The notes under the pieces are model-generated. The model had not been told where the DNA came from and ran no database searches. It was given only the letters and a program-made list of their open reading frames with translations. A program made the position numbers and the translations under genes. A stretch of DNA of 52,197 nt from a virus (lineage: Duplodnaviria > Caudoviricetes), in IMG/VR virus record IMGVR_UViG_3300028025_003950, positions 1 through 52,197 of that record; one strand, written 5' to 3'. Positions 3,873-45,190 of this stretch are shown one piece after another; the first letter of the stretch is position 1, and every line of letters begins with the position of its first letter.

Positions 3873-5954
3873 CTAGTCGTCGTAGAACTCTGTTGCGTAA
3901 TACATTTGGGCTGTCCACTGTATCTTGTGAGTAACTGATTCACCATCAATTCTGTATAGAGAGAGCTGTTTTTCGTTGTTACTACTTCTATCCCAGAAAA
4001 CGGCAGTTCCAGTATCGCTTCCACCACTAGAGGTTTCTATGTGGGTAACGTTGTCGTCGCCAGAATCATCTGCTATGTAGATAGTTCCAATGACGGTTCC
4101 GCCGTCACTTACATAAGCGTGGTATTCAATCTTTGCTCCACGAAAGTTTCCGTTTGAGAAATCTTCATTTGTTGGGTTTTCATTATCTGCATTCCACCAA
4201 ACAATTGGTGCACCACCATGTTCAATGGTCATACTATAGGTAGTGGCGTCAAGAAGGTCAAGAGTTAGGTCGCATCCAAATCTCCACTCGTAACCACCTT
4301 CAGTAGTTCCTATATAAGTAGGGTTTCTTAAAAACCTTACAGTGCCAGATTCATCAGTTATGGTGATTCGTCTTATGTAAGGGTTTTGTCCATTAAGTAC
4401 GTTGTGTTGTGCTGCGCCTACACTAAAATTAACAAGGGTGTCGTTTGAAGCCCCTCCCAGTGTGTAAACATTATCACCTAAACCTGTGGACGCTTCAGTT
4501 GTTATTTCTGTAAAGCCATGTGCTTGGTAAGTTCCATACCGTGCTTCGTTATTAGCGGTGTATGTTTTTACAGCGTCTGGGATATCGCCAATGGTTGCAA
4601 CTCGGTTAGTTGCATCTGGGCTGATTGTTGCATCGCCCCAGCCGATGTAGACATTTCCTGGACCGCTATCTCCAGCAATCAGGGTGATATCTCTTGCAGA
4701 ACGAAGTGATAGGTCGTCCTGTGGAGTGCCAATACGAGCAGTGCCTGTAGAAGTTCTTGTGAAGGTGATGAAGTCATCTCCACTGCCATCCTTGATGGCT
4801 GTTGGGACAACGAGGTTTGCGGAACCTCCTCCAATTATTGTGGAGTCTCCATTCTTAAGACCGCTGTACTCGTCAATCACATTATCGGAGGTAACGATAC
4901 TTAGATTAGACATGTAGGTTCTTACACTTGGATTGTTCTGGTCTGCTGCAAAACCAATTCGGTAAGGACCAGAAGGTAGAGCCTCGTTGAGGCTAACTGA
5001 CGCAATAACCTCGTTAGAGCCTTCTTCCGTGTAGGAGACAGTTACCTTGTCAGTAGATGCTGTTGGGTTGTATGTAAAGGTAACGGTATAGATTCCGTTG
5101 CCTGGTAAACCCCCTTCAGCAGTTGCTGAAGTGGTGCGACCACTAAGTTCTAGGTTGACGCAATCAAACTGAGCAGCGATTCTTGTTGTGTCTGGGCTAT
5201 AGTTCCACACTGGGGTGGTTCCTGCGTTATAGATAGCAATGCCCATGTCAGCGCACTCGGAGTTGATGTCGACATCAAAGCTTACTGTGACACCTACATT
5301 TTGTGGAATAATGGAGTTTGTAAAGATTGGATAGGAACTTCCGCCCTCTGCAGCTCCTGTAAACCAAATACCATCAGAGTCCCAACCAAAGTGTGTGTTT
5401 AGGTATTGAAGATGACCACGCTGCTCTTCCCATGTTAGGAAGGGCTCAAGTGGGTCAAGGCTTTGACCAGCACTAATTTGCATGCTTCCGTCTGGGAAGG
5501 TAATTCTTCCGTTTTTATCAAAGACCCAGTCTCTTCTGCTTCCATAGAGTGGACCGCTGCCAGTTCCGTCTCCTCTGTAACTATTAGTCTGAATAGTTAC
5601 CTCATCGGCCGCGTAGATACCAATCTCATCTCCGTAGGCACGAATCCAAACATCGTCGGCTGCTTCGATGTTGATGTCGCAGTCTGAAGTGACAGGGTCA
5701 TTGTCACGAACAGCTTGAATAGTCATGTCGTGGTCGGTGACAGTCATAACGCTGCCCTCTTCACTGTCATAAGCAAAGACAAAGTCAGCAATGCTTGCGC
5801 TCTGGAACTGCAACGCATTCCATCTGCTTGTGCCATCACCAATCTTGAACTTGCCTAGTGTGGTGTCAACACCAATCTCTGCTTGGGCAAGAACTGGATT
5901 TGCATACTCCCAGCCAGCTGTTGTGTCGTTTCTTAATTGAATTTGCTGAGCCAT
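3873..5954 (-). CDS. Tail fibre/receptor-binding protein with Mtd_N/hyaluronidase-like N-terminus
   Basis: IQLRNDT...W...NPVL...EIG.DT..GKFKIGDG...W..L N-terminal anchor domain. Confidence 0.8.
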   Translation of the reverse strand: MAQQIQLRNDTTAGWEYANPVLAQAEIGVDTTLGKFKIGDGTSRWNALQFQSASIADFVFAYDSEEGSVMTVTDHDMTIQAVRDNDPVTSDCDINIEAADDVWIRAYGDEIGIYAADEVTIQTNSYRGDGTGSGPLYGSRRDWVFDKNGRITFPDGSMQISAGQSLDPLEPFLTWEEQRGHLQYLNTHFGWDSDGIWFTGAAEGGSSYPIFTNSIIPQNVGVTVSFDVDINSECADMGIAIYNAGTTPVWNYSPDTTRIAAQFDCVNLELSGRTTSATAEGGLPGNGIYTVTFTYNPTASTDKVTVSYTEEGSNEVIASVSLNEALPSGPYRIGFAADQNNPSVRTYMSNLSIVTSDNVIDEYSGLKNGDSTIIGGGSANLVVPTAIKDGSGDDFITFTRTSTGTARIGTPQDDLSLRSARDITLIAGDSGPGNVYIGWGDATISPDATNRVATIGDIPDAVKTYTANNEARYGTYQAHGFTEITTEASTGLGDNVYTLGGASNDTLVNFSVGAAQHNVLNGQNPYIRRITITDESGTVRFLRNPTYIGTTEGGYEWRFGCDLTLDLLDATTYSMTIEHGGAPIVWWNADNENPTNEDFSNGNFRGAKIEYHAYVSDGGTVIGTIYIADDSGDDNVTHIETSSGGSDTGTAVFWDRSSNNEKQLSLYRIDGESVTHKIQWTAQMYYATEFYDD

Positions 5955-15895: not shown

Positions 15896-15917
15896 GTAAC
15901 GAGTCTAGTCTATTTAG

Positions 15918-15991
15918 AGCCCCGAATCGGATTCGAACCGATGACCCTCCGCTTACAAGGCGGATGCTCTGGCCAACTGAGCTATCAGGGC
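15918..15991 (-). tRNA. tRNA-Thr(UGU)
   Basis: Cloverleaf; anticodon arm TCCGC-CTTGTAA-GCGGA; GTTCGAAT T-loop. Confidence 0.92.
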
Positions 15992-16001
15992 GATGTTTTG
16001 A

Positions 16002-16568
16002 TTATAGACCACCTGGAACCCAGAGGTCGTCTCCATTCTCACGATTTTCATATCTAGCCAAAACAAATAGCAAATCACTAAGACGGTTCAGATACTTGGC
16101 AGTCAATGTATTGACACCTTCTCCAAACTGGTGAATTGCATGCCAAGTTGCTCTCTCTGCACGACGAACTATTGTTCTAGCCACATGGAGATGAGAAGAA
16201 GCTGGAGTCCCGCTAGGGAGAACAAAAGAACGTAAAGATTCAAGTCCAGAGTTGTAACTGTCTATTTCACTCTCAAGATAGTCAATCTGCTCTTGAGTTA
16301 CACGAAGTGGCTTTACTTTTGGTGACTCTACTACTGGAGTACATAAATCAGCTCCAACGTCAAACATATCGTTTTGAATCTTTACTAGCAAAGTCCTAAT
16401 GTTGTAGTTCTGCACATGCAACAGAGCAACACCAATGTATGAGTTAGCTTCATCAACAGTAGCGAACGCTTCAAGTCTTGGGTCATTCTTAGATGTGCGA
16501 GACATGTCACCAAGTGAAGTTGTTCCATCGTCACCAGTCTTGGTGTAAATGCGAGTTAAATTAACCAT
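16002..16568 (-). CDS. pduO: PduO-type ATP:cob(I)alamin adenosyltransferase
   Basis: RIYTKTGD.G.T, VDEANS, FVLP.G, H.ARTI.RRAER, YLNRLSD.LF..AR signatures; AAGGAG RBS. Confidence 0.93.
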   Translation of the reverse strand: MVNLTRIYTKTGDDGTTSLGDMSRTSKNDPRLEAFATVDEANSYIGVALLHVQNYNIRTLLVKIQNDMFDVGADLCTPVVESPKVKPLRVTQEQIDYLESEIDSYNSGLESLRSFVLPSGTPASSHLHVARTIVRRAERATWHAIHQFGEGVNTLTAKYLNRLSDLLFVLARYENRENGDDLWVPGGL

Positions 16569-16584
16569 TGTTCTCCTTAATGTG

Positions 16585-16655
16585 CTCCCTGCCAAGGACT
16601 CGAACCTCAATTGCTGGTGCCAGAAACCAGAGTCTTGCCATTAGACGAACAGGGA
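16585..16655 (-). tRNA. tRNA-Gln(CUG)
   Basis: Cloverleaf; CTGGT-TTCTGGC-ACCAG anticodon arm. Confidence 0.9.
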
Positions 16656-16664
16656 TAGTTTCCG

Positions 16665-16737
16665 TACCTCGGATGGGATTCGAACCCACGACCTTCTCCG
16701 TGAGAGGGAGATGTCCTAACCGCTAGACGACCGAGGC
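16665..16737 (-). tRNA. tRNA-Glu(CUC)
   Basis: Cloverleaf; TCTCC-CTCTCAC-GGAGA anticodon arm. Confidence 0.92.
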
Positions 16738-16902
16738 TTAGTGTCCTGTCATCATACGCCATACATGGATGTATAGCGAGTGAGCAGCGTAGAGAGCAGA
16801 GATAGTAAAGATTGTCTGAACAACTATTTGATGAACGCTAACCTTTTTAAAACCACGCTCTTCTTTTACTTTTACCTCTGAAGGGCGGGTTTTAGTAATC
16901 AT
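16738..16902 (-). CDS. 54-aa single-TM microprotein (below ORF-track cutoff)
   Basis: ATGA overlap with the upstream gene; MITKTRPSEVKVKEERGFKKVSVHQIVVQTIFTISALYAAHSLYIHVWRMMTGH. Confidence 0.6.
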   Translation of the reverse strand: MITKTRPSEVKVKEERGFKKVSVHQIVVQTIFTISALYAAHSLYIHVWRMMTGH

Positions 16903-17366
16903 GGGTAGCGGACCTTTCCATTTTCTATAAACACTAAGCCAAGTGAATCACCATTGTCGAGGTGCACTTCGTTAATGCCAGTCTGTGCCCATCCCCATTC
17001 TCCTGCAGTATTGAAAGGAATCGGGAAAGACTCATACTCTTTTACATAAACTGCCCAGTAGGCTTCTGCGGGTGGCATTTCTTCACAGCTTTCTACCGTG
17101 GCATCAGGCAATCCATTTACACGACAAACAACAGCGTTTCCGTATTTCAGGGTTCCCTCTATGTTAATTATAGCAATATCTAAAAGAGCAAGAGCATTGC
17201 CTCCATCAGAGGTAATGACGCATTTCTCGATAGGGGGGCTTGAATCAAGGGAGCCATAGTCAACATAAATGCTTACGCAATTAGTGGGATTTGCTGGAAA
17301 AGCGTAGGTAAGACCTAAAGCTAAAAAGCAAGCACAAACGATACCTATTATTGTTTTCTTAAACAT
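16899..17366 (-). CDS. Exported DUF4430/SCO2322-like (transcobalamin C-terminal-like) putative cobalamin-binding protein
   Basis: Signal/anchor helix; V.VDYG, .VCRVNGLP, YWA.Y, W.WA..G....L..GD.LG..F pattern; own leaderless -10 (TAGGCT-7nt-ATG). Confidence 0.6.
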   Translation of the reverse strand: MFKKTIIGIVCACFLALGLTYAFPANPTNCVSIYVDYGSLDSSPPIEKCVITSDGGNALALLDIAIINIEGTLKYGNAVVCRVNGLPDATVESCEEMPPAEAYWAVYVKEYESFPIPFNTAGEWGWAQTGINEVHLDNGDSLGLVFIENGKVRYP

Positions 17367-17384
17367 ATTTAAAAGCCTAATGCA

Positions 17385-17417
17385 AAACGGGACAGGTTTC
17401 AACAACCTATCCCGTTT
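17385..17417 (-). terminator. Intrinsic terminator after M23 gene
   Basis: AAACGGGACAGGTT/AACCTATCCCGTTT inverted repeat. Confidence 0.7.
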
Positions 17418-17428
17418 GCTTTGTGTAA

Positions 17429-17836
17429 CTACACAGCCAATAGACCTGCTGGGTCGATTCCTCCGCCCCTAGTCCATGTTGGCTTTGCTTGACACTCTAG
17501 GTGGAGATGAGGACCAGTTACGTTTCCCTCTGCTCCTGAGTCAAGAACATGCTGTCCTTTGACTACCTTGTCACCTTTTTTAACATGAAGCTTTTGTCCA
17601 TGTGCATACATTGTGAAGAGAGTTTGCTCTCCAACTTTATGCCTGATGACTAACGAGTGCTTTCCGTAAGCACCACCCCAGATACCTGTACCAACGACAG
17701 TGCCGTCTGCACAAGCAAGGACTGGTGTTCCTTTGGGGCAAGCGAAATCCACGCCTTCGTGTCTTCCTGTTGACCACATCTTTCCTGGCTTAGCGAAGGG
17801 TGTAGTTATCTTGCCACCAGCAATTGGAAGTGCCAT
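17429..17836 (-). CDS. M23 family metallopeptidase (stand-alone)
   Basis: HEGVD (HxxxD), YAH, GPHLHLE (HxH). Confidence 0.9.
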   Translation of the reverse strand: MALPIAGGKITTPFAKPGKMWSTGRHEGVDFACPKGTPVLACADGTVVGTGIWGGAYGKHSLVIRHKVGEQTLFTMYAHGQKLHVKKGDKVVKGQHVLDSGAEGNVTGPHLHLECQAKPTWTRGGGIDPAGLLAV

Positions 17837-17927
17837 ATGCTCACTCACAATTTCTGTGCTTGTCTTACTAGAGTGCTTTACTCTATATAAAGATTTTAAC
17901 CTCTGCGTTAGTGTGTGAGATTGAAAG

Positions 17928-18007
17928 TGCGGGTGGTTGGAATCGAACCAACATCCTCCCAGCCCATCCTATAAAGCTAGGTACACCTCCGAATGTGCGA
18001 CACCCGC
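17928..18007 (-). ncRNA. tRNA-like RNA with a 24-nt anticodon arm (no assignable anticodon)
   Basis: Perfect acceptor stem GCGGGTG/CACCCGC, D arm, T arm GTTGG-TTCGATT-CCAAC; anticodon loop 14 nt. Confidence 0.75.
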
Positions 18008-18008
18008 T

Positions 18009-18084
18009 TGGCTGGGATGGCAGGGCTCGAACCTGCGACCTAGGAGTTAACAGCTCCCCGCTCTGCCAGCTGAGCTACATCCCA
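18009..18084 (-). tRNA. tRNA-Asn(GUU), CCA encoded
   Basis: Cloverleaf; GGGAG-CTGTTAA-CTCCT anticodon arm. Confidence 0.93.
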
Positions 18085-18092
18085 ATGGCTAT

Positions 18093-18317
18093 TTATTTTT
18101 CTATTGCGTCAATCTCTGCAGGACGATAGCCACTCCAAATTGCATTATCAGTTACAACAATTGGAGCTGTCTTCAAACCTTGAGAAAGAAACATCTCAAG
18201 CTTGTCTGGATTTTCTGTCAAGTCAACAACACTATATTCAATCTCTCTGCGGTCTAGATGCTTCTTAGTTGCGTTGCACTGAACACAGTTTGGTGTGGTG
18301 TAAACGGTTACGCTCAT
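18093..18317 (-). CDS. nrdH: NrdH-like glutaredoxin
   Basis: VTVYT.P.CVQC.AT, AP.V, WSG.RP motifs. Confidence 0.9.
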   Translation of the reverse strand: MSVTVYTTPNCVQCNATKKHLDRREIEYSVVDLTENPDKLEMFLSQGLKTAPIVVTDNAIWSGYRPAEIDAIEK

Positions 18318-18694
18318 GCGTGGACAATCCTTTCAATTCCTGCCGAGTTAATTAGTTTAGAACATCCAGGACAAGGCTTACCTGTAATGTAAATAGTAGA
18401 GCCTGATAAGTCATTCCAGCTTGCTCTTAGAAGTGCGTTTGATTCTGCATGAGTTGCCCAGCAAAGGTCGTAATTTCCTTCTGCATGTTTAGCAGTTGAG
18501 TCAAGTGCACGAGGACATTGCCCTGTTGCGCCACAAGAACGGTCATCGCCTGACGGTGTTCCGTTATATCCAGTAGAAACAATCTTGTGGTCTTTAACAA
18601 TAATTGCTCCGTGTTGTGCACGAACACAATCTCCACGAGCAGACACTGCTTTAGCGATTGCTAGGTAGTAGTCGTCCCAACTAGGTCTAAGCAC
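18314..18694 (-). CDS. dCMP deaminase
   Basis: RPSWD.Y, TGYNG, HAE.NA, PC..C Zn motifs. Confidence 0.9.
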   Translation of the reverse strand: MLRPSWDDYYLAIAKAVSARGDCVRAQHGAIIVKDHKIVSTGYNGTPSGDDRSCGATGQCPRALDSTAKHAEGNYDLCWATHAESNALLRASWNDLSGSTIYITGKPCPGCSKLINSAGIERIVHA

Positions 18695-19019
18695 TAGTCA
18701 GCCGTCCAGTAATCATCTTCATCACTAGCAGTTGCATACTTTTGCTTCCACTTTTCAATGTCAGATAAAAGCGCTGTGGCTTTTGCATGTACTTCCTTTA
18801 TAGCCTCTTCAGCAAGGAGAATACGAAACTCGATATTAAGAAACTCGTGGTCTAGGTCATCTGACATCTTCGTCCTCTGTCTTTATGGTGTGTACAAGTA
18901 TCACATAATTTGTTGATTTTAAAAACAATAGCCGTGCAACAAACTTAAGAACTTTATGCTTCCACTCTGGGTAGTCATCAATAACCCCAAGAGTTATGGG
19001 GCTAGGAGGCTTTTTAGCT

Positions 19020-19244
19020 TTAGGCATTGTTCTGGGTGCGAATAAATTCGCTAAGAAGCTCTACATTGTCAAAGTCAATATCCATCTCTAGACCTTCTTC
19101 AAGAGGACGAAACTTTCCTTCTTCGCCTTCACCTTCAAGAACTTGTCCTTGACCTTTAGTTAGAGAGCCAAGCATGTCATCTGCAGAAGCCCACTTCTTT
19201 GTATCTACGTCATAGCAAAGTAGATAATAAATCTCGGTTTGCAT
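19020..19244 (-). CDS. Hypothetical acidic protein
   Basis: GGAGG RBS, coupled to the upstream gene. Confidence 0.5.
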   Translation of the reverse strand: MQTEIYYLLCYDVDTKKWASADDMLGSLTKGQGQVLEGEGEEGKFRPLEEGLEMDIDFDNVELLSEFIRTQNNA

Positions 19245-19418
19245 CTATCCTCCTGTTTTGTAAAAGCCACGCCCCTTGAACTGCACGGGGGCTGAATAAA
19301 ATATGCGTCTTAATTCTCCACCACACTCAGGGCATTCTGTGACCTTTTGGTCTTCAGTCATGCTTCTGATTTCAGTATAGATATGCTCTTTGTCGCATTT
19401 ATACTCATATGTTGCCAT
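19245..19418 (-). CDS. FmdB-family zinc-ribbon protein (57 aa, below ORF cutoff)
   Basis: MATYEYKC...H..CPECGG.L.R...FKG.GFY.T. Confidence 0.85.
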   Translation of the reverse strand: MATYEYKCDKEHIYTEIRSMTEDQKVTECPECGGELRRIFYSAPVQFKGRGFYKTGG

Positions 19419-19477
19419 AAACCCAGTCTAAAGGAAAACCCCCCTGTCCGTATAGACAGAGGGGAATCCAACAATAA

Positions 19478-20140
19478 CTATTTTGTTTTCTTTGCCTTAG
19501 GGGCAGCTCCAAAGCCAGGAACTGGGTTTACCAATTTCTTCTTAGACCCTGGTTTCTTTTTTGCAGAAAGACCTGACACATCTAGACTTGGTGGGGCGGT
19601 GGAGACTTGGTCCTCTGGTGAAAGTTCTTTAGCAGAAGCCTTTAACTTTTCGAAAGCCATTACAGACTCAACGAAAGCAATCGGACTAACAAAACCTTTT
19701 CCGTTTAGGTCCCAACGGTGACTCTTGCCTTCGACAATTTCAAAATGCAAATGTCTTCCAGCTGAAGCTCCAGTGTTTCCCATAATTCCAAGAATTGTTC
19801 CAGCTTCAACCTTCTGACCAGTCTTAACTTTGAGTGAGCCTTCAGCCATGTGACCAGAGCGAGTGGTGTACCACTTGCCATCAATCTTGCTGCGAATGTC
19901 AACGTAGTATCCAATGCCGCCTAGAGAGCCGTCAGCGTTTTTTAACTTTGACGGACCTGCATACACCACTGTTCCATCGTGCCATGCTTCAATGTAAATT
20001 TTTGGATTAGAGCCCCATATGTCATCGCCATTATGATGCTTCTTTGTTTTTTCAATGGGATGTATCCTCCATCCGAAGGGACTTGTAATTTTCCAAGCCT
20101 TACCTTTTTTCCCGTCTATAGGGTATTGCGCTTTTGCCAT
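19478..20140 (-). CDS. M23 peptidase (endolysin-like) with Lys/Pro-rich tail
   Basis: HNGDD, HLHFE motifs; paralog of the next gene. Confidence 0.9.
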   Translation of the reverse strand: MAKAQYPIDGKKGKAWKITSPFGWRIHPIEKTKKHHNGDDIWGSNPKIYIEAWHDGTVVYAGPSKLKNADGSLGGIGYYVDIRSKIDGKWYTTRSGHMAEGSLKVKTGQKVEAGTILGIMGNTGASAGRHLHFEIVEGKSHRWDLNGKGFVSPIAFVESVMAFEKLKASAKELSPEDQVSTAPPSLDVSGLSAKKKPGSKKKLVNPVPGFGAAPKAKKTK

Positions 20141-20279
20141 GATGTCCTTTCTAGACATAGATACTTCAATTGTAGAAAGATGGCTAAACAGAAACATTAG
20201 TGCAGATGTTCGAAGAATAGAAAAACTCCCGTACCTCTGCCGAAGTACAGGAGCTTCCTATGTAAAAAGTGTTTAGAAA

Positions 20280-21002
20280 CTACTTCAGTTTTATAACCTG
20301 ACCAACGTTGATTTTGTTTGCATCTTTGATTCCGTTTAGCTTTACCAAAGCTGCAACAGTTGTTCCGTTAGCCTTAGCGATTTTTGTTAGAGTGTCGCCA
20401 GATACGACTGTGTAGGTTTTTGCTCCTGAGGTAGCTGGTTTTGCAACTACTGGTTTAGGACCGTGAACGGGTGCTGGAAGAACTGGGTCGCTCTCCTTTG
20501 CCTCCACACTTGCAGTTCCCGCTGCATTCTCCACCGCAATTACAGCATTGAAGAATGTGAACGGTTCGATGTAGCCCTTGCCTGTGTTGTTCCATTCGTG
20601 GTTCTTTCCCTCTTTCAACTCCCAGTGGAGATGCTTGCCTGTAGACATTCCAGTTGAAGCCATCTTGCCAAGAATGGTTCCTGCTTCAATCTTCTGTCCC
20701 TCTTTTACTTTTAGCCCGTCAGCCATGTGTGCGTACAAAGTTGTGTACCACTTGCCGTTAATGTTGTGGAGTAGCTTTACAAAGTTACCAAAGCCACCAC
20801 CTGCAGCAGTTGACTTTCTTGCTTCGAGTACTTTGCCATCATATGGAGCTTCAATCCAACATGGCTCCTGTCCAGACCATACGTCCGAGCCATTGTGATG
20901 CTTCTTCTCTTTTGTCACTGGGTGAATACGATTACCCATCGGGGATGTGATTTTAAAATCTTTCCCTAGTTTGCCGTCAATAGGCAGTTGTGCTTTAGCC
21001 AA
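20280..21002 (-). CDS. M23 peptidase with C-terminal LysM
   Basis: HNGSD, YAHM, HLHWE; YTVVSGDTL..IA..LN.I....I.VGQ.I.L LysM. Confidence 0.92.
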   Translation of the reverse strand: MAKAQLPIDGKLGKDFKITSPMGNRIHPVTKEKKHHNGSDVWSGQEPCWIEAPYDGKVLEARKSTAAGGGFGNFVKLLHNINGKWYTTLYAHMADGLKVKEGQKIEAGTILGKMASTGMSTGKHLHWELKEGKNHEWNNTGKGYIEPFTFFNAVIAVENAAGTASVEAKESDPVLPAPVHGPKPVVAKPATSGAKTYTVVSGDTLTKIAKANGTTVAALVKLNGIKDANKINVGQVIKLK

Positions 21003-21078
21003 TTTGTCATCCTTAGTTTTCCGTAATTATTTGGAATGTGCGTTACTACCAAATAACGGTAACAATTAAGAAATTGGT

Positions 21079-21588
21079 CTATTCTGCTGTAAGAGTGTAC
21101 AAGCCCTGCCCTGTAGCCAAATCACTGGCGACATTTGAATCAGTAAGTGTTTTTAATTTTGTGAATTTTGCCTTCTCTGCAACCCTAATGCTAGACACAT
21201 TGTCATCGTGAATCATTGCTTCGATGGACTTAACAGCCAGCTCTTTAAATGCGTAAGTTGTTACTAAGTTGACAGCAGCAGTGGCCAATCCTCTTCCACA
21301 GAACTCTAAGCCAATCCAATAGCTAATAGAACACGACTTCGGATTATCTTTGAAACGCCAGAGAACAACTTGTCCAACTGTGACATGTTTGTATTTAATC
21401 GTAAAGAAATAGTTCTCGGGGGATTCGGTGGGGGTTTGCGTCGTTTTCCAAGGCTCTAGATGCGCCTTGTTTACTTCCATCAAATAGCTGATGTGTGCTG
21501 AATCTTGAAATGAAGTAGTAGAAACTGACACGAGGTCATCGGAAAGTTTGACGGTTTGCTTGGTCTCCCCGAAATCCTTAAACCTCAT
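21079..21588 (-). CDS. RimJ/RimL-type GNAT acetyltransferase
   Basis: ISYWI....GRGLAT.A, N.SS.RVAEK..F. Confidence 0.85.
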   Translation of the reverse strand: MRFKDFGETKQTVKLSDDLVSVSTTSFQDSAHISYLMEVNKAHLEPWKTTQTPTESPENYFFTIKYKHVTVGQVVLWRFKDNPKSCSISYWIGLEFCGRGLATAAVNLVTTYAFKELAVKSIEAMIHDDNVSSIRVAEKAKFTKLKTLTDSNVASDLATGQGLYTLTAE

Positions 21589-21609
21589 GTCAGCCTCTCT
21601 ACATCTAAT

Positions 21610-21801
21610 TTACTTCTTCTTTGGTGCTGCTGGTTTCTTTGCAGCTGGCTTTTTAGCTGGTGCTTTTTTCTTCGCGACTGGACGTTCACTTGGTGTGCCT
21701 TCTTGCACGATTCCGTCTTTGTCACGGTCAATAGCATTAGCTTTGTAGCCTTCAGATACTCCTAGGAAAACTCCTAGTCGCTTCAATGCGTTCTTCATCA
21801 T
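21610..21801 (-). CDS. Small protein with DxDxDG loop and PAAKK tail
   Basis: DRDKDGIVQEGTP.ERP plus histone-H1-like tail. Confidence 0.6.
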   Translation of the reverse strand: MMKNALKRLGVFLGVSEGYKANAIDRDKDGIVQEGTPSERPVAKKKAPAKKPAAKKPAAPKKK

Positions 21802-22625
21802 TTACCTCCTAACTTAACAATAGCAGCCCAAGTCTTTGGACCAACAGTTCCGTTGGCTTCAAGACCGTTTGCTTTTTGAAATGCAATGACTGCCTTTTCT
21901 GTACCTGGACCAAATTCTCCATCTGCCTTAAGTTTTAATGCAGTCTGCACTCTTTTAACTTTAGGACCTTTTGCACCTTTCTTAAATGGCGTAAAGGCTG
22001 CTGGAGCTTTAGCTGCAGGTGTAGAAGTTGTTGCTTTCTTAGGAGCTGCAGCTTTTGCTGCTGGTGCATCAGATGAACCAACCTTTGAAAGTAGTGGAAG
22101 ACTTTCTTCGCCAGCATAGACTGGTCGACCCCAGCCTACGATTGCGTTCATAAGTTTTAACTTATTATCTTTAACATATGCGCGAGTCTTCTCGACACAC
22201 ATTCCACCATTGCGCTGGTCTCCCTTTGCAGTTCCTGAAGTGTTGCCTTCAATAACTTGGATGGTTCCATTACCGTTGTTCTTGATACAGATACCAACGT
22301 GTGAAATTCGGTTGACGCCATCATCTGGGAAGTCGAAATAAATCCAGTCTCCAGGAGTTGGGTCATCATTACGGGCATCTGCCCAGCGGTCGTTCTTCTT
22401 AAAGAAGTCAGCTGCTGCAACTGTTGATGCAGACTTTGGATACTTCTTTGCGTCTAGTCCTGATGTGAATGCACACCAAGAAACAAATGATTGGCACCAT
22501 GGCTGAAAATTAACGCCAGTCCACTTGCCATACTTTGTCTCGTTATCTTTCGGTCCTTCGATTGTTCCTATCTCTGCTTTGGCAACTTCGATAATTCGAG
22601 CTGCCGTACCTTTAGCTTCAGGCAC
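21798..22625 (-). CDS. Endolysin: CHAP amidase plus peptidoglycan-binding domain
   Basis: PWC..FVSW, HVGI, IEGNT; DG.FGP.T..AV..FQ..NGL...G.VGP.TW. Confidence 0.9.
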   Translation of the reverse strand: MPEAKGTAARIIEVAKAEIGTIEGPKDNETKYGKWTGVNFQPWCQSFVSWCAFTSGLDAKKYPKSASTVAAADFFKKNDRWADARNDDPTPGDWIYFDFPDDGVNRISHVGICIKNNGNGTIQVIEGNTSGTAKGDQRNGGMCVEKTRAYVKDNKLKLMNAIVGWGRPVYAGEESLPLLSKVGSSDAPAAKAAAPKKATTSTPAAKAPAAFTPFKKGAKGPKVKRVQTALKLKADGEFGPGTEKAVIAFQKANGLEANGTVGPKTWAAIVKLGGK

Positions 22626-22835
22626 AGTATTACCTCTATTCGAATAGATTAGTCGCTCTTGTTTGAGCGGCCCTTAGTGTATCGAAGTAGTGACCGTTTT
22701 AGCTCTAGGTTCTCTCTTCGCAGGTGCCAGTTATCTCGAATAGTCCAGAGCATTAGCCCTGTAGATGAGATAAGGGCAATAATTACTGCCAGTATGTCTG
22801 TCGTTAGTAGTGTCATTGTAGGAGCGTACCAAAAG

Positions 22836-22863
22836 AAAAACCCCCCTGTAAAGGGGGGCTTTT
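22836..22863 (-). terminator. Terminator downstream of RNR
   Basis: A-run, C-rich/G-rich stem, T-run hairpin. Confidence 0.65.
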
Positions 22864-22912
22864 CCGTCGTCTGTCCCCACTGGTGGAGTGGGGGGCGAAC
22901 TCTTAAATATTA

Positions 22913-24955
22913 CTACTTATTGTTCTCGACTACAAGCTTAATCTCGCATGCGTCTGTGGTGCAGTACGCCTCACCAATTGCATCTGCAGCAAGCCCTGCG
23001 TATACGCCAGCAAAGTCAATAGGGAAAAGTTCGCTTGTGTAAGCCTCGTACTCTTCTTCTGTGATTTGGGTGTAAGGCATCTGTGGGTATGTGAAGTTTC
23101 CTGAAGGTAGGAATGAAACTGTCTTCAACTGTCCGTCATACATATGTAGGACTGTTGGGACATGCTCTGCTTCCTTCTCTGGGTCAAAGCTGATGGTTAC
23201 TGATACAGAGTTGTCTGACCAGTAACGCTGAGCAGTTGCAGCAAGTGACATCTTCTCGAAGATAGAAACATCTTTCTCTGCACGCTCTGCTAGTGACTTG
23301 ATTGGGAAGAACACTACTGATGTTGTATCAGGTGACTCTGATGCTGGTTCAATCTTGTAGTTAGCAAGTGTGAAGAGTGGAAGCATTGGGTCGTTGTTTC
23401 CAAAACGAATAGCACGCATGAAGTACTTACCGCCTGGAGTCCAGTGAACTCCTGGAGACTCACCTGCAAGAATAGAAACGGTTCCTGATGGCTTAACGGT
23501 TGTTGTCTTAATTGACTCACGAACACCAAGCCACTCGGAGTACACCTCGTCGTACTTTTTTACGGTAGCGTATCCCTCGTCCATCCATTCACGGAGGACG
23601 GGAAGTCCAACGCGGTCTGCAAAGTTTGCAACTCCAGACATCGACGTGCCGATTCTGCGATTACGCTGCATGATTGCGTTGGTCTCTTCCCAATGTGTTG
23701 GAAGAAGAGTTACAGTCTTAGCGTAAAGGTACGCAAACTTTAGAGTGCGTAGGTAATCTTCTTTTGTTTCGTGACGGTTGAGGTATGTCTCGACGAGCGT
23801 ACACATTTCGTACGATTCAAGGGACTGCTCTGCACAAGGGTTGTATCCCATGATTCGGTGGTCCTTGTTGTTGATGGGGTCTGCAAGACGACCGTACTTC
23901 TTTGATACGTCCATCCATAGAACTCCTGGTTCGCCGTTGCGAACGATTCCGTCAACGATTGGTGCGAAGTCAGTTCCAACTTCTGCGACGACAGAGTTAT
24001 TAGACATCCATCCCCAACCTGGATTCTCTGGGTCGTATGAGTTACGTTCAGGGAAAACTTCTGCATTCTTAAGGTTGAGGAAGTCTTCGTCGTCGATGCG
24101 ACCGATGAGCAACTCTGCGCTTCTGCGAACATTGCCCGATACTACACAACGTCCAATCAAATTACCAATGTCTGCAATGTCTGTGCGTGTTAGCTTCTGT
24201 CCAGCTCGTCCTGTAAACATCTTACGAATAACTTCGTGTAGAAGAACTAATGGTTCTGGACCTGATGCTGTTCCACCAAATGACTTAATAGGTGCGCCAT
24301 ACGGACGAATGTCTGCATAATCAAAAGCAAGTGACTTCTGATTCTCCTTCAAGAAAGAGTTGATAAGTGCAACGGTTGACTCCTGCCATCCTTCACGAGT
24401 GTCAGGAATTAGGTAGACATCTTCACCCTGTGGCTCATAGATAGTGAAGTCCTTGTCTGCGCCAAGCTGGTCAAAGCCAACACCAACGCCAAGCATTGAT
24501 GCTTCCATCAAGAAAGCAAAAGGCTTTCCTGGATTGTTCTTTGTCATCTCTTGAGTAGAAACAAATGCACAGTTCTGAAGTGCAGCAGAGTTCTTCTGGA
24601 CGTTAACAATGTCAGTTCCCATTACCCAGAGTCCACGACCTGGAGGTGTCCACTTCAAATCAAAGAGACGCTCGAAGAATTCTTTAGCAGATGACTGCGC
24701 CTTTGCATCAGACCATGGAAGACGCTGTTGCTTTGCATAATCTTTCTGAAGTGAGTATGTACCGTTGGTTACGCGCTCGCAGACTTCAGCCCAAGTTTCT
24801 TTAGTTCCATCCTCTTTCTTGCGTGAGTATGTGCGAAGAAATGTAATTTCTCCTACAGAGTTGCCGCCTGCATCTCGATAACCAAATGGTGCTGTCTTGT
24901 TTTTAAAACTTGAAACGAAGTCTTCTGAAAGACGAAATGAGAATGCAATAGCCAC
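22913..24955 (-). CDS. nrdJ: Class II (adenosylcobalamin-dependent) monomeric ribonucleotide reductase
   Basis: PPGRGLW, ALQNC, GNVRRSA, NPCAEQ, TVKPSGTVS, C-terminal YCTTDAC. Confidence 0.93.
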   Translation of the reverse strand: MAIAFSFRLSEDFVSSFKNKTAPFGYRDAGGNSVGEITFLRTYSRKKEDGTKETWAEVCERVTNGTYSLQKDYAKQQRLPWSDAKAQSSAKEFFERLFDLKWTPPGRGLWVMGTDIVNVQKNSAALQNCAFVSTQEMTKNNPGKPFAFLMEASMLGVGVGFDQLGADKDFTIYEPQGEDVYLIPDTREGWQESTVALINSFLKENQKSLAFDYADIRPYGAPIKSFGGTASGPEPLVLLHEVIRKMFTGRAGQKLTRTDIADIGNLIGRCVVSGNVRRSAELLIGRIDDEDFLNLKNAEVFPERNSYDPENPGWGWMSNNSVVAEVGTDFAPIVDGIVRNGEPGVLWMDVSKKYGRLADPINNKDHRIMGYNPCAEQSLESYEMCTLVETYLNRHETKEDYLRTLKFAYLYAKTVTLLPTHWEETNAIMQRNRRIGTSMSGVANFADRVGLPVLREWMDEGYATVKKYDEVYSEWLGVRESIKTTTVKPSGTVSILAGESPGVHWTPGGKYFMRAIRFGNNDPMLPLFTLANYKIEPASESPDTTSVVFFPIKSLAERAEKDVSIFEKMSLAATAQRYWSDNSVSVTISFDPEKEAEHVPTVLHMYDGQLKTVSFLPSGNFTYPQMPYTQITEEEYEAYTSELFPIDFAGVYAGLAADAIGEAYCTTDACEIKLVVENNK

Positions 24956-25034: not shown

Positions 25035-25268
25035 CTAGAAAAGCGTATCGCTGTCCAATCCTGGACTTTTAGTAGGGGTATGTGTGAGACCAAGCACTAT
25101 TCCTCGGGCTAACTCTAAACCTGAGATAAAGTGATTGTTTAGTCCACGTTCGGTAGAGCGGTCTACAACTGCTTGAATTTCTTCTGCAAGTTTGTTGCGA
25201 GTGTTGTACTCAGACTCACTTCTAATAGTTTCGTAACTGCTCCAAGTTGGTCCTGAGGATTCACTCAC
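25035..25268 (-). CDS. Hypothetical protein
   Basis: Coupled ORF in operon. Confidence 0.5.
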   Translation of the reverse strand: MSESSGPTWSSYETIRSESEYNTRNKLAEEIQAVVDRSTERGLNNHFISGLELARGIVLGLTHTPTKSPGLDSDTLF

Positions 25269-25702
25269 GTTTTCACTTCCTTTGCGTTAGGGGTGGTGGT
25301 AAAGATTATTGGGAGTTCTAACTCTTTAGCAATAGCGATTTCAAGCTTTGCTCCCTCTGACTCACCCCATCCTGGGAGGACATAAACGGAGTCAGATTTC
25401 ATAAGTGCTTCTAAATCTCTACGCATGTACCAAGCCCTAGGCATAATGTTTTCGGTTGGTCCAATTTCTCCAGGGTTAAAGACAGCCTTACCTTGAGCAC
25501 GAAGTTCTTCTGCAACTCTTGCAAATGCTGGACGGTTGTAATCAGGTAGTCCCGTCATGGGACCTGATAGGTAGATGTGGAAACGGTGACCGTTTTTATA
25601 TGACTCTCTTAAAAGATGATTTGCGAAGCGAGGACTTAACACGGTGTCTCTTCGCATGAGTGAACGGTAAGCAAGATGTCTTTTGTTCCGCACCCACCAC
25701 AT
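25265..25702 (-). CDS. DUF4406 / nucleoside deoxyribosyltransferase-like protein
   Basis: IYLSGPMTG..DYN..AF, NP, LPGW..S.GA.LE; start uncertain. Confidence 0.8.
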   Translation of the reverse strand: MWWVRNKRHLAYRSLMRRDTVLSPRFANHLLRESYKNGHRFHIYLSGPMTGLPDYNRPAFARVAEELRAQGKAVFNPGEIGPTENIMPRAWYMRRDLEALMKSDSVYVLPGWGESEGAKLEIAIAKELELPIIFTTTPNAKEVKT

Positions 25703-29577: not shown

Positions 29578-29799
29578 ATGTACGAATACTGGTCATGGTT
29601 ACTAGCTGTACTTGGCGTATCTGGAATGTACTTTGTTGGAAAGAAGACTGTTTGGGGATGGCTGGTTCTACTGGCTAACGAAGTTATTTGGGTTGTCTAT
29701 GCCCTAGTCACCAACCAATATGGATTCATTTTGATGGCTATCGCTTATGCCATTGTCTATATCAAAAGCTACCTTGAGTGGCGAAAAGCGGAAATCTAG
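29578..29799 (+). CDS. PnuC-like small membrane protein
   Basis: WSW.L...G..G.Y..GKK..WGW...NE..W..YA..T.QYGF pattern, 3 TM. Confidence 0.65.
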   Translation: MYEYWSWLLAVLGVSGMYFVGKKTVWGWLVLLANEVIWVVYALVTNQYGFILMAIAYAIVYIKSYLEWRKAEI

Positions 29800-37049: not shown

Positions 37050-38084
37050 ATGGAAACTCTAAAAGAACGCTACGCCGAGATTGGCGCAGGATTTTGGGAC
37101 ACAGTAATAGATGTTGTCTCGCAGGTTGCAAATGAAGATGCTTCGGTGCAACTCAATGCAAAGGTGACTCCAACTGGTCGCTATGTTGCTCGTGCATCAG
37201 GTGCAGAGCGTGCGCCTCGTAAGCGTGCAATAGATAACGCAGTTGCAGTTGAAAACATGGAAGGTGAAGAGGCTTACCTTCGTCCAAATGGCACTAAGTA
37301 TTTTGGTCGCAAGTGGGGCGTTCACTCAGATGTTCTGACTCTTCGCAAGGCTCGTGAAGCAACTGCAAAGGTGTTCGCAGGTTCTGCGGGCTCTCCAATG
37401 TTTGCACTTTTGTATGGCGCTCCAGGTTGCGGTAAAACTGCACTTGTAGAGGCTGCTTATTCAGATGTCTACACCTTGATGGGAACTGGCGATACAGAAG
37501 TTGCCGACATGATTGGTGGTTATGTTCAGACACCTGCTGGTGGTTTCGAGTGGGTTGATGGCGACTTGGTAAAAGCTGCCGAAACTGGTGGCGTGTATTT
37601 CATTGACGAGATTGGTTTGATTGACCCTAAGGTTCTTTCAATCGTCTACGGACTAATGGACGGACGCCGTGAACTTACAATCACAGCGAACCCTGAACGA
37701 GGAACTATCAAGGCTCACCCTGAGTTCTTTGTAGTCGCTGCAACTAACCCAAACGCACCTGGAGTTCGTTTGTCCGAGGCTCTGCTATCTCGTTTCACCT
37801 TGCAGGTTGAAATGACTACCGATTGGGCGCTCGCTCGAAAGATGGGCGTTCCTACTGCACTCGTCACAGTTGCTCAAAACTTGGCAAAGAAACAACTTGC
37901 AAGAGAAGTTTCTTGGTCTCCTCAGTTCCGTGAACTAATTGCTTTCCGTGACATCGCAGAAACTTTTGGAACTGACTTTGCTATTGCAAACCTTCTCGCT
38001 GCTTCGCCTGAGTTAGACCGCCCGATTGTGGCAGATGTCTTGACTCGTGCGTATGCCACCGAGTGCAAGCCAGCGAAAATCTAA
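37050..38084 (+). CDS. MoxR-type (CbbQ/NorQ/CobS-like) AAA+ ATPase
   Basis: GAPGCGKT Walker A, FIDEI Walker B, AATNP, LSEALLSRF. Confidence 0.92.
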   Translation: METLKERYAEIGAGFWDTVIDVVSQVANEDASVQLNAKVTPTGRYVARASGAERAPRKRAIDNAVAVENMEGEEAYLRPNGTKYFGRKWGVHSDVLTLRKAREATAKVFAGSAGSPMFALLYGAPGCGKTALVEAAYSDVYTLMGTGDTEVADMIGGYVQTPAGGFEWVDGDLVKAAETGGVYFIDEIGLIDPKVLSIVYGLMDGRRELTITANPERGTIKAHPEFFVVAATNPNAPGVRLSEALLSRFTLQVEMTTDWALARKMGVPTALVTVAQNLAKKQLAREVSWSPQFRELIAFRDIAETFGTDFAIANLLAASPELDRPIVADVLTRAYATECKPAKI

Positions 38085-38231: not shown

Positions 38232-40043
38232 ATGGCACACATCAAGCACAGCGAGAACCGTGCAAGCAATACCCCCACCGAGTGGTTGGGAGTAGGGCGT
38301 GCGATTGGTGAACTTGCAAACAAGTGGAGCGAGCGCCACGACCTAATTGGTTATGTGGGAACTAATGCAGGACATGGAGCACCAGCGTGCTACAACCCTG
38401 CGCTCGCAGAGATTGAAGTAGACACAGCGATTGCTTTCGGCAAGATGATTTCACCTGAGATGGTTGGAGACCTTACCGAACGCTCAAAACAATTTGAGTT
38501 TCCTAAGGCAGTTGGTGCGATTATGCACGAAGCCTTCCACGCAAAGTTCTCACAATGGGATTTGGAAAAGGCATACAAAGATTTAGAAAAAGATGAGCAC
38601 CAAGCACTTATCCTTTTGGAGGAAAGTCGTATTGAAGCTCAGGGGCTTTTGGCTATGCCTGAGTCTCTAAACTTTCTACGAGCATGTGCGATGGACATTG
38701 TGATTGCAGATGCACAAGAAAAGTTTGAGACATCATCAAACACACAGAGTGCTGCTTTTCTTGTGGCAACAGTTCACGCAAGAATTGACGCAGGTATCCT
38801 CGACGAGTCTGAGGTAAAAGATTTGGTCGAGTTGGTAGACGCTTACATGAGTCCTGAAGTTATTGCGAAGTTGCGTGAGATTGCTGCAAAGTTTCAGGCA
38901 CACACAATGCACGCCAATGCGGAGTTGTTGTATCCACTTGCTAAAGAGTGGGCAAAAATTATTCGTGATGTTGCCGAAGAAAAAGGCGATGGTCAAGGAC
39001 AAGATGGAAAGCCTGAGTCAGGTGAAGCAGGTGAAGGCTCAGGTGGTATGTCTAAAGAGTTTGCAAAGATGTTGATGGACGCACTCGAAGAAGCAGGTGC
39101 GGTAATTTCTATTGGCAACGCCGATGCGCTCGCAGACCAAGAGCAAGCAGAGGAGTGGGAGCAAGAAGTAAAAGACAAGCAAGCAGATGCTAAAGAGCGT
39201 CAGAAAAATAAAGAGACAGCAAAGGAAGTGTTCGACAAGAGCACAGGTGTTGGCGTCTCAAAGACCTCATCTCGTTTGCGTGAAACTCGTAAGCCAACTC
39301 CCGAAGAAAGAATTGCTGCGGTTCAGATTGCACAGTTGTTAGAGAAAGCAAAATACCGTGAGCGTGATGCGATTGAGATTGCAAGCATTACACCTCCAGG
39401 AAGATTACGGACTCGACAGATGGTTCAGGCTAAGGCTCTCAAAGAGCGTGGCGTGATGAAGCAAGTAGAGCCGTTCCGTAGAACAGTTCGCAAGCACACC
39501 GACGACCCGACACTTACTGTTGGCGTAATGGTGGACATCTCAGGCTCTATGGGCTCTGCGATGAACCCAATGGCAACTACCGCTTGGGTTATGTCGGAAG
39601 CGGTGCGCCGAGTGCAGGGCAAGTGTGCGATGGTCTACTACGGCAACGATGTGTTCCCGACTCTAAAGGCTGGACAACACCTAGAAGATGTCAATGTTTA
39701 TACGGCAGAAGATGGCACGGAGAAGTTCGACAAGGCTTTTCGAGCACTTGACGGAAGCCTCAATCTTCTGAACGGTAGCGGTGCTAGACTATTGGTTGTC
39801 GTCTCAGATGGTCAATACACTCACGATGAGCGAGAGCACGCACGCAAGTGGCTGGCTCGATGCAACGATGCGGGTGTAGCGATTTTGTGGCTACCGTTTG
39901 ACGGTGGGCATTATGCTGAGAGACTAGCACGGCACTCTAGAGTTGCGGTTCTTAGTGGCGTGTTAGACCCTACTGGTGCAGCATCAGAGATTGGTAGAGC
40001 AGCAGCAGGGGAACTTACAAATGTGGGTAGGCTCAACGCCTAA
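38232..40043 (+). CDS. HExxH metallopeptidase-like plus vWA domain protein (MoxR partner)
   Basis: HEAFH + LLEE.RIE; acidic Gly linker; DISGSM MIDAS, VVSDG. Confidence 0.88.
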   Translation: MAHIKHSENRASNTPTEWLGVGRAIGELANKWSERHDLIGYVGTNAGHGAPACYNPALAEIEVDTAIAFGKMISPEMVGDLTERSKQFEFPKAVGAIMHEAFHAKFSQWDLEKAYKDLEKDEHQALILLEESRIEAQGLLAMPESLNFLRACAMDIVIADAQEKFETSSNTQSAAFLVATVHARIDAGILDESEVKDLVELVDAYMSPEVIAKLREIAAKFQAHTMHANAELLYPLAKEWAKIIRDVAEEKGDGQGQDGKPESGEAGEGSGGMSKEFAKMLMDALEEAGAVISIGNADALADQEQAEEWEQEVKDKQADAKERQKNKETAKEVFDKSTGVGVSKTSSRLRETRKPTPEERIAAVQIAQLLEKAKYRERDAIEIASITPPGRLRTRQMVQAKALKERGVMKQVEPFRRTVRKHTDDPTLTVGVMVDISGSMGSAMNPMATTAWVMSEAVRRVQGKCAMVYYGNDVFPTLKAGQHLEDVNVYTAEDGTEKFDKAFRALDGSLNLLNGSGARLLVVVSDGQYTHDEREHARKWLARCNDAGVAILWLPFDGGHYAERLARHSRVAVLSGVLDPTGAASEIGRAAAGELTNVGRLNA

Positions 40044-44554: not shown

Positions 44555-45190
44555 ATGAAGAAGGTGACAGAAATGACAGACAAAGAGTGGGAAGACCTAG
44601 AGGTTGCGTCAGCGCAAATTCTATGGGAGAACCTCAATGCGGAAGATGAAGCAGACTTAGTAAATCTGGAAAGACCAGATTACGGTCAGGCTGGACGACG
44701 CTACTACGACCCATTGTGGTCAGAAGTGTTGGACGGACTTTGGCAAGGTGGAACAGATGACCTTGATGTTGATAGACAACTAAAAGTTCCAATGATTACA
44801 ACCAAAAGCTTCGACACCGTTATCACAATGTATGCGGACGCTAATCCTGTTGATTGGTTCGTAAAAGAGTTTCGCTATGGTGTCTGGGATTCAGACATCA
44901 ACAAGATGGACACAACAGAATTGTTTGACATCGTGCGATTGGCTCATGCCGATTGGAAGCGTGGCAAGCGAGTTCTTATTCGTTGCCAAGCAGGTTGGAA
45001 TCGTTCAGGACTAATCACAGCGTTGGTTCTTATTCGTGAGGGCATGGGTGCTCGTGAAGCCATTGACCTTATTCGTGAGAAGCGAAGCGAGTGGGCACTT
45101 TGCAACAAGTCTTTTGAGAAGTTCTTGTTAGAACAAGACCCAAAGGTTTGGCAGGGCGACTCATACGGAAGCGACACGCCGAAGAACTAA
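44555..45190 (+). CDS. Dual-specificity/tyrosine (Cys-based) phosphatase
   Basis: VLIRCQAGWNRSG (CX5R) P-loop. Confidence 0.88.
   Translation: MKKVTEMTDKEWEDLEVASAQILWENLNAEDEADLVNLERPDYGQAGRRYYDPLWSEVLDGLWQGGTDDLDVDRQLKVPMITTKSFDTVITMYADANPVDWFVKEFRYGVWDSDINKMDTTELFDIVRLAHADWKRGKRVLIRCQAGWNRSGLITALVLIREGMGAREAIDLIREKRSEWALCNKSFEKFLLEQDPKVWQGDSYGSDTPKN

Follow-up and report, generated by a model that had tools for sequence, protein, structure and literature searches.

A phage gene cassette proposed to capture, activate and use cobalamin for a B12-dependent ribonucleotide reductase

The 52,197-bp stretch of DNA considered here at its full length (the window) is a fragment of an uncultivated virus record, is estimated to be 39% complete and presents a G+C content of 46%. 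Genes on its minus strand specify a class II ribonucleotide reductase of the RTPR type, an NrdH-like glutaredoxin, a PduO-type adenosyltransferase and a 155-residue protein, termed here X155, that is followed by a 54-residue peptide. Together, these would comprise a phage-borne chain for the capture of cobalamin (vitamin B12), its activation and its use by the phage's own B12-dependent reductase, a reading to which we assign a probability of about 0.6. Such a chain had been put forward in a first-pass annotation of the same DNA and is supported by comparative evidence, namely synteny across related phages, homology of X155 to the DUF4430 and SCO2322 families and the B12-related contexts in which its relatives are found. 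The genes in question, each of which lies where that annotation had placed it, are as follows.

22913-24955, minus strand: RTPR-type class II ribonucleotide reductase, 680 residues (curated models)
18093-18317, minus strand: NrdH-like glutaredoxin, 74 residues, with the motif CVQC (curated models)
16899-17366, minus strand: X155, 155 residues, predicted to be exported or membrane-anchored (alignment; profile-profile homology)
16738-16902, minus strand: 54-residue one-helix peptide
16664-16737, minus strand: tRNA-Glu (CUC), beginning one base past the peptide stop codon (ARAGORN; Rfam, 64.5 bits)
16584-16655, minus strand: tRNA-Gln (CUG) (ARAGORN; Rfam, 43.8 bits)
16002-16568, minus strand: PduO-type ATP:cob(I)alamin adenosyltransferase, 188 residues, with its own AAGGAG ribosome-binding site (PF01923, TIGR00636)

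The identities assigned earlier to the three enzymes held up, with each exceeding the cut-off of a curated model. The reductase matches TIGR02505 at the equivalog level (361.2 bits; cut-off, 340.05), PF21995, the class II insertion domain (57.4 bits; cut-off, 27), PF17975 and phrog_367 (E 3e-139). A redox-active cysteine pair near the C-terminus is a feature of monomeric RTPR, and the C-terminal tail of the window protein reads C-T-T-D-A-C, i.e., C-x4-C. The NrdH-like redoxin matches TIGR02194 (88.1 bits; cut-off, 85.75) and PF00462, contains a CxxC motif in the form C-V-Q-C and is a likely electron donor of the reductase in this phage. The product of 16002-16568 is, by family, a PduO-type adenosyltransferase (PF01923, 208.9 bits; cut-off, 24; TIGR00636, 182.1 bits; cut-off, 108.45) for which adenosylation activity is predicted. 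The N-terminal ATP-binding motif of PduO proteins is T-K-x-G-D-x-G-x-T; residues 9-17 of the phage protein read T-K-T-G-D-D-G-T-T, and these columns are invariant among nine phage PduOs.

To consider how these genes are arranged in other phages, synteny was assessed from both ends of the cassette, namely at 80 viral loci containing X155, which were dereplicated at 90% identity into 31 lineages, and at the best 80 of the PduO loci found on 345 viral contigs. In the former set, PduO directly adjoins X155 and its peptide in 63 of the 80 loci (61 downstream and two upstream), while a class II reductase gene ends just upstream of X155 in 38. Of the 31 lineages, 27 have PduO as a direct neighbour of X155, 16 have the reductase and 30 have one or both, such that the expected co-occurrence of X155 with pduO and the class II reductase gene across related phages was indeed observed. 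Contigs without an adjacent reductase gene carry a class II reductase elsewhere in five of five cases, and contigs without an adjacent PduO gene carry PduO elsewhere in two of five, the remaining three being fragments that are 22-55% complete. Three gene orders were seen, with X155 and the peptide together in each, and in most loci the coding sequences of X155, the peptide and PduO run into one another, with overlapping or abutting start and stop codons. In the window, the ATG of the peptide overlaps the X155 stop codon as ATGA, as expected of the translational coupling previously claimed. When viewed from PduO, X155 lies within 3.5 kb in 50 of the 80 loci and does not in 27, with three loci being cut. 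The arrangement of the cassette is not a product of chance. The two tRNA genes found between the peptide and PduO in the window lie outside the conserved core, appearing there in only one (contig L002) of eight related loci scanned.

This linkage bears on a different explanation, according to which X155 and the peptide form a surface decoy or mediate superinfection exclusion by masking the receptor or transporter of related phages, with the proximity of pduO and the reductase gene reflecting merely a shared early or 'moron' expression block. Phages are known to use nutrient receptors, and some phage proteins block such receptors; X155 is predicted to be exported or membrane-anchored, is related to host surface lipoproteins and is encoded among cell-wall hydrolases in the window, behind its own hairpin and possible promoter. 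On the other hand, the overlapping or abutting codons of X155, the peptide and PduO in most loci count against this reading, the adjoining of PduO and/or the reductase in 30 of 31 lineages, in three gene orders, would not be expected of a hitch-hiking exclusion gene, and no exclusion-type family match was found for X155. A role as decoy is accordingly deemed quite unlikely.

X155 itself contains a lysine-rich N-terminus, a hydrophobic segment of some 19 residues that lacks a lipobox, four conserved cysteines (alignment A1) and a W/Y-rich sequence that includes the motifs YWA and WGWAQ, a pattern that suits an exported, disulfide-bonded ligand binder. The family comprises 144 protein clusters (90% clustering). 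Neighbours proposed by a protein language model (DUF4430 clusters, scores of 0.85-0.89) and the names given in a protein Atlas (DUF4430 and SCO2322 families) were taken as leads only. The earlier description of the protein as DUF4430/SCO2322-like stands at the superfamily level, where profile-profile matches were obtained, and not at the level of a direct hidden Markov model (HMM) match.

When a profile combining phage and cellular X155 sequences was compared by hhalign with a DUF4430 profile prepared from 16 aligned domains of actinobacterial genomes, a match across the whole domain was obtained (93.2%, E 2.9e-7, 116 columns). Trimming of the signal peptide left a match of 89.8% (E 1.8e-6), with one reversed and five column-shuffled controls scoring no higher than 0.2%, while a profile containing phage sequences only gave a weaker match (41-58%). 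By contrast, the HMM search that had been suggested as a check was negative: the PF14478 (DUF4430) model matched neither X155 at E values up to 10, nor any of the six frames of the window at E values up to 1, nor any of 107 distant X155 relatives at E of 0.001 or less. Weak matches of the DUF4430 profile were obtained to transcobalamin-1 (residues 360-427) and to the solved chain 3u7z, in line with the description of DUF4430, in the part of the source available, as the C-terminal region of transcobalamin-type proteins (PMC4350170).

DUF4430, the family to which the C-terminal (beta) domains of transcobalamin, intrinsic factor and haptocorrin belong, is, like X155, extracytoplasmic, and both present an aromatic W/Y-rich strand and a G-D-x-h-x-h motif at the end. 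X155 differs in containing an insert with a C81-C94 pair and an M-P-P motif, in having no alpha-domain attached, in being phage-encoded and in always being paired with a small peptide. BtuH, considered as a relative in terms of fold, was rejected, since the paper describing it reports low structural similarity to anything and, in the portion available, makes no mention of transcobalamin (PMC8941943).

The relation to SCO2322 (NCBIfam NF040672; Pfam PF28005 by Atlas label only) is of a different kind. In hhalign comparisons, each half of X155 matches the SCO2322 family, at 93.6% (E 2.1e-7) and 90.1% (E 1.6e-6), but the order of the halves is reversed; controls scored no higher than 0.6%. As the halves are exchanged, circular permutation is implied, and the SCO2322 family appears to be a circularly permuted version of an X155/DUF4430-type domain. 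The NF040672 model gave no X155 match at E values up to 0.1, and cellular relatives of X155 scored 19-23 bits, well short of the cut-off of 85. Based on these profile comparisons, X155 is a new family within a DUF4430/SCO2322 superfamily.

SCO2322 proteins resemble X155 in being exported, in containing conserved cysteines and in the homology of both halves (90-94%). They were found above cut-off in 76 of 201 Actinomycetes genomes, a tally that includes one unpublished genome. A cobalamin-clan riboswitch lies upstream, on the same strand, at six of ten fetched loci, and a cobalamin riboswitch precedes SCO2322 at 12 of 16 named loci of the Nanopelagicaceae/Planktophila type. The SCO2322 genes head operons encoding energy-coupling factor (ECF) transporters, with CobU following in two. 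The premise that proteins of this sort accompany B12 ECF transporters was therefore sound, given how these genes head ECF operons behind cobalamin riboswitches. Whereas SCO2322 heads or accompanies a riboswitch-controlled ECF module, the phage X155 copy, in which the domain is circularly permuted relative to SCO2322, comes without a riboswitch and without adjacent ECF genes. Rare long relatives were also found in which an X155-type domain is fused to an SCO2321-like alpha/alpha toroid, one of which weakly matches PF01122, a eukaryotic cobalamin-binder family. In the literature searched, no paper on SCO2322 was found.

Collinear relatives were sought by searching 1.84 billion representative proteins with the X155 profile, yielding 528 matches. 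The nearest cellular relatives are lipobox-containing lipoproteins of high G+C content that present the same four cysteines and core motifs (E down to 9e-25). In species genomes, 203 loci were found in Microbacteriaceae-type records, with Agromyces, Cryobacterium, Aurantimicrobium, Pontimonas, Aquiluna and others being among the genera that encode such an X-type lipoprotein. Downstream of the gene, an EcfT-ATPase-ATPase fusion is encoded in 68 of the 71 loci with room for one, an ECF S component is present in 64 of 64 and a convergent gene for the B12-dependent MetH in 51 of 58. PduO, CobA, CobS and methylmalonyl-CoA mutase were each found in none of five Microbacteriaceae-type carrier genomes. 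This lipoprotein of an ECF operon is thus the closest collinear relative of X155; the lipoprotein has a lipobox anchor and is followed by the EcfT-ATPase-ATPase fusion and S component, whereas X155 has a plain hydrophobic N-terminus and is followed by the peptide and PduO.

Cobalamin is the sole cofactor common to the three contexts in which the superfamily was encountered, i.e., beside PduO and RTPR in phages, beside metH in cells and behind adenosylcobalamin (AdoCbl) riboswitches in the case of SCO2322. As such, X155 is proposed to be a cobalamin binder. It could be argued that the pair recognizes something other than complete cobalamin, be it cobalt or another metal, cobinamide or another incomplete corrinoid, or folate, with the His or Cys-x-Cys found at the end of the peptide serving as a metal ligand. 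The nearest solved DUF4430 chain, 3u7z, was deposited as a 'putative metal binding protein', terminal histidine and cysteine residues are classical metal ligands, CobU, found after two SCO2322 operons, is a corrinoid-salvage enzyme, and the window encodes a CobS-like AAA+ ATPase. Moreover, the X-type cellular loci lie in a methionine/folate neighbourhood that includes metH and, in single loci, genes for MTHFR and a Cys/Met pyridoxal phosphate enzyme. Still, none of these other ligands is shared by the phage, metH and riboswitch contexts as cobalamin is, no corrinoid-completing enzyme was found among the 78 open reading frames (ORFs) of the window that were scanned, and a free metal would be of no use to PduO or RTPR alike. 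A ligand other than complete cobalamin is hence considered improbable, although less so than the decoy.

The peptide was found to be a constant companion of X155. At each of the 80 viral loci, a small ORF of 41-62 codons comes directly after X155, usually overlapping its stop codon, and encodes a K/R-rich N-terminus and one predicted transmembrane helix with conserved Q, N/H and D residues. The peptide ends in W-R-x-x-T-G-H-stop in 77 of the 80 loci (W-R-M-M-T-G-H in the window) and in C-x-C-stop in three. Alignment A4 shows W48 to be invariant, with conservation of at least 90% at R49, G53 and H54. The family comprises 171 protein clusters, none of which is named. As the end motif was seen at all 80 phage loci and at none of 106 cellular loci (1.02 Mb), the peptide is phage-specific. 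By eye, the peptide appeared to resemble the first helix of the EcfT fusion of cells; this was dismissed, since the hhalign probability (0.41) equalled that of reversed and shuffled controls. Fusions of X155 and the peptide, or longer forms, were not found, which is weak evidence.

According to the positive-inside rule, the last six residues of the peptide would be exposed on the outer side of the membrane, where X155 is also placed. From there, the peptide could possibly supply an axial His or Cys ligand or else dock with a host transporter. The first of these options calls to mind BtuM, a solitary membrane protein that binds B12 through an axial Cys ligand. The analogy is functional only, concerning a terminal His or Cys on cobalt, and no homology is claimed; BtuM resembles an S component and contains several helices, as against one in the phage peptide. 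The parallel nonetheless raises the prospect that X155 and the peptide process or chaperone cobalamin rather than capture it, removing or exchanging the upper ligand or setting the base-off form before transport. In the available part of the relevant paper, BtuM is described as binding B12 base-off via its Cys axial ligand and as decyanating B12 (PMC6072759), and the C-terminus of the phage peptide alternates between His and Cys-x-Cys while the remainder is kept. Against this, no covariation of X155 with the His or Cys-x-Cys type of peptide end was visible in 32 sequences. Processing in this manner, which overlaps and is compatible with capture, is given little chance of being the actual role of the pair.

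The identity of the likely host was considered next. The window PduO, although phage-encoded, shares 72-80% identity over its full length with PduO of Candidatus Nanopelagicaceae and Planktophila, and 74-77% identity with that of three of five small (1.4-Mb) acI-type genomes, all five of which encode a PduO. The B12-dependent NrdJ was detected above cut-off in 18 of 21 genomes of a family-level sample around one small genome whose PduO is 76% identical to that of the phage. When the window RTPR served as query, no RTPR-like gene was found in five X-type carriers or five acI-type genomes. An AdoCbl riboswitch is found directly upstream of SCO2322 in each of the three small acI-type genomes whose loci were fetched. 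In the available portion of a study of 72 isolates, Nanopelagicales are reported to take up most vitamins, including B12, with salvage of cobalamin from cobinamide being limited to five Planktophila strains (PMC12817590). In a second such source, isolated Planktophila phages are reported to have a G+C content slightly below that of the host (PMC10202952). PduO identity, NrdJ, the riboswitches and published B12 uptake together point to an acI-type B12 scavenger, and acI-type Actinobacteria are accordingly the probable host. In such a host, the cell's own supply of deoxynucleoside triphosphates (dNTPs) likely needs AdoCbl, and the importer operon is likely shut by AdoCbl. It had been suggested that the phage bypasses riboswitch feedback of the host type. 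This fits, in that the likely host lineage contains a cobalamin riboswitch while no Rfam riboswitch was detected in the whole window. The notion that the cassette chiefly serves a host without any adenosyltransferase was abandoned, as this holds for the five X-type carriers (PduO in none of five) and fails for the acI type.

On this basis, the following course of events is proposed. The N-terminal hydrophobic segment of X155 would anchor the protein to the outer face of the host membrane, where X155, paired with the 54-residue peptide, would bind external cobalamin or another corrinoid. It would then hand the corrinoid to a host ECF-type importer, standing in for the SCO2322-type accessory protein of the host without the AdoCbl riboswitch that governs that operon. 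Host flavoproteins would reduce the imported cobalamin to cob(I)alamin, which PduO would convert to AdoCbl. With AdoCbl, the monomeric RTPR would reduce nucleoside triphosphates to dNTPs for phage DNA, with the NrdH-like redoxin as likely donor. Corrinoid binding by X155 and hand-over to the host ECF module are steps that we infer. A phage contributing its own reductase and adenosyltransferase, along with a capture protein free of riboswitch control, fits acI physiology, because dNTP supply there would need AdoCbl while AdoCbl would shut the importer.

A more specific version of the capture-activation-use reading can also be envisaged, in which X155 and the peptide form a phage-specific two-chain outer corrinoid receptor, the C-terminal His or Cys-x-Cys of the peptide provides an axial cobalt ligand, and the receptor docks with the host ECF module in place of the riboswitch-repressed SCO2322, such that B12 homeostasis of the host is overridden. 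This version is tentative and, while it may be correct, is more doubtful than the chain as a whole. Were it true, an infected acI cell would keep importing B12 while phage PduO raises AdoCbl levels.

Several observations weigh against the proposal that the cassette captures, activates and uses cobalamin. X155 gave no match to Pfam (E up to 10), NCBIfam or PHROG, all curated models being silent, searches of the sequences of solved structures with X155 profiles A1 and A2 returned chance-level rows only, and identity to any cellular relative is only 31-42%. At the X-type cellular loci, no cobalamin riboswitch was found in 12 loci at the gathering score or in five at E values up to 1. No X-type protein was found in the five small acI-type genomes, where the native partner is of the permuted SCO2322 type, placing the fit of X155 to the host transporter in doubt. 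No genes for ECF T, A or S components were found among the 78 scanned ORFs, and any import must therefore rely on the host. The 27 of 80 PduO loci without X155 within 3.5 kb likewise count here, though five such contigs carry X155 elsewhere, beside the reductase gene. Only two of 80 loci have NrdH within 10 kb of X155, which places NrdH outside the conserved core. Finally, DSL-LC01, the phage in GenBank closest in terms of RTPR, contains no X155 or PduO match despite its 77.7% identical RTPR, showing the cassette to be dispensable in some relatives.

DSL-LC01, a metagenome-assembled lake actinophage, was the best match among the 1178 GenBank phage records that contain RTPR relatives. The cassette is widespread in IMG/VR, with X155 being found on 186 contigs and PduO relatives on 345, yet almost no deposited phage genome contains it. 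Of 50,697 GenBank phage records, none gave an X155 match and only 15, mostly short and unannotated, contain a PduO relative; identity stays below 60% in every case, and no actinophage is included. When the region was compared with the GenBank phages by megablast, a tRNA was the sole match.

B12-dependent RTPR is among the commonest reductases of aquatic viruses, and acI Actinobacteria are the most abundant freshwater bacteria. The RTPR of virioplankton and actinophages is the same monomeric class II reductase as that seen here, where it is accompanied by a candidate B12 binder and an adenosyltransferase, both of which are missing from DSL-LC01. How RTPR viruses secure scarce B12 has been addressed in print as a possibility only, with the available part of one study raising the idea that they may 'regulate or enhance B12 uptake or production' (PMC10547690). 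The cassette offers concrete candidates for the capture and activation steps. Moreover, as the likely acI hosts scavenge B12 and need it for dNTP synthesis, the cassette bears on vitamin traffic in lakes. Viral auxiliary genes and DUF4430/SCO2322 accessory proteins are known kinds; what is new is the branch of the DUF4430/SCO2322 superfamily, the circular permutation between branches and the conserved micro-protein with its terminal His/Cys motif. No paper describing the cassette was found in the literature searched; supplements, which lay outside that search, may list such genes.

The remaining features of the region, including those immediately upstream of X155, are as follows.

Between the RTPR and NrdH genes, minus strand: CHAP/peptidoglycan-binding hydrolase, GNAT protein, two M23 peptidases, small ORFs and dCMP deaminase
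17927-18084, minus strand: tRNA-Asn and a tRNA with anticodon UAU
17429-17848, minus strand: third M23 peptidase
17382-17419, minus strand: strong, terminator-like hairpin that precedes UUUUGCAUU, located between the stop codon of the M23 peptidase gene and X155 (RNA fold)
17374-17402, minus strand: candidate promoter comprising TTGAAA (17402-17397), a 17-nucleotide spacer and TAGGCT (17379-17374) (read by eye)
15917-15991, minus strand: tRNA-Thr

The hairpin at 17382-17419 has a predicted folding energy of -25.3 kcal/mol (z -5.07), with none of 200 shuffled sequences being as stable, and runs into UUUUGCAUU; a terminator scan did not call it. It is identical in L002, the sole relative with the same upstream sequence, although that contig is too close to be informative. 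The TAGGCT hexamer of the first-pass annotation does lie at 17379-17374, seven nucleotides from the ATG at 17366, and no purine-rich ribosome-binding site could be seen by eye upstream of X155. A consensus promoter scan made no call at TTGAAA/TAGGCT, because the -10 hexamer agrees with the consensus at only three of six positions. The sequence is nonetheless compatible with a leaderless start of the actinobacterial type at X155, which is plausible. Since X155 abuts the reductase stop codon in many related phages, a leaderless arrangement would be local to this lineage.

In terms of the tRNA genes, that at 17927-18007 (minus strand) is long (79-81 nucleotides) and was assigned as tRNA-Ile (UAU) in the window (Rfam, 45.3 bits), while its counterpart in L002 (9362-9440) was called tRNA-Tyr with the anticodon 'ata'. 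Cell-wall hydrolases are unusually numerous, comprising three M23 peptidases (one with LysM), a CHAP and PG_binding_1 protein, NlpC/P60 and SLT, encoded at 17429-22625 (minus strand), 204-998 (plus strand) and 46609-47256 (plus strand). The cassette is flanked by further nucleotide-metabolism genes at 25265-25702 and 18314-18694 (both minus strand), encoding a DUF4406/nucleoside 2-deoxyribosyltransferase-like protein and the dCMP deaminase, respectively.

Elsewhere in the window, on the plus strand, an anti-defence gene at 1277-1759 encodes a 160-residue match to Tad3, a type I Thoeris inhibitor (PF25185, E 5.3e-34). The CobS-like product of 37050-38084 is an AAA_5 ATPase of the viral 'CobS-like' group, matching phrog_249, labelled as porphyrin biosynthesis (E 3.5e-23), and phrog_16448 (E 1.9e-50); it is followed at 38232-40043 by a 603-residue protein with no family match, and a 634-residue vWA protein is encoded nearby in related contig L034. 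The 73-residue product of an ORF at 29578-29799 shows similarity to the N-terminal region of PnuC, a nicotinamide-riboside transporter, although the match does not reach the cut-off (PF04973, E 6.2e-5), and the phage protein encoded at 44555-45190 includes a dual-specificity protein phosphatase domain (PF00782, E 1.6e-10). Among related contigs, L023 contains a transfer-messenger RNA gene (4291-4624; tag peptide AESRSAFALAA) just upstream of the X155 gene, and L054 encodes a full-length cytochrome P450 (5276-6718, minus strand; PF00067, E 1.2e-72) near the reductase-X155 pair.

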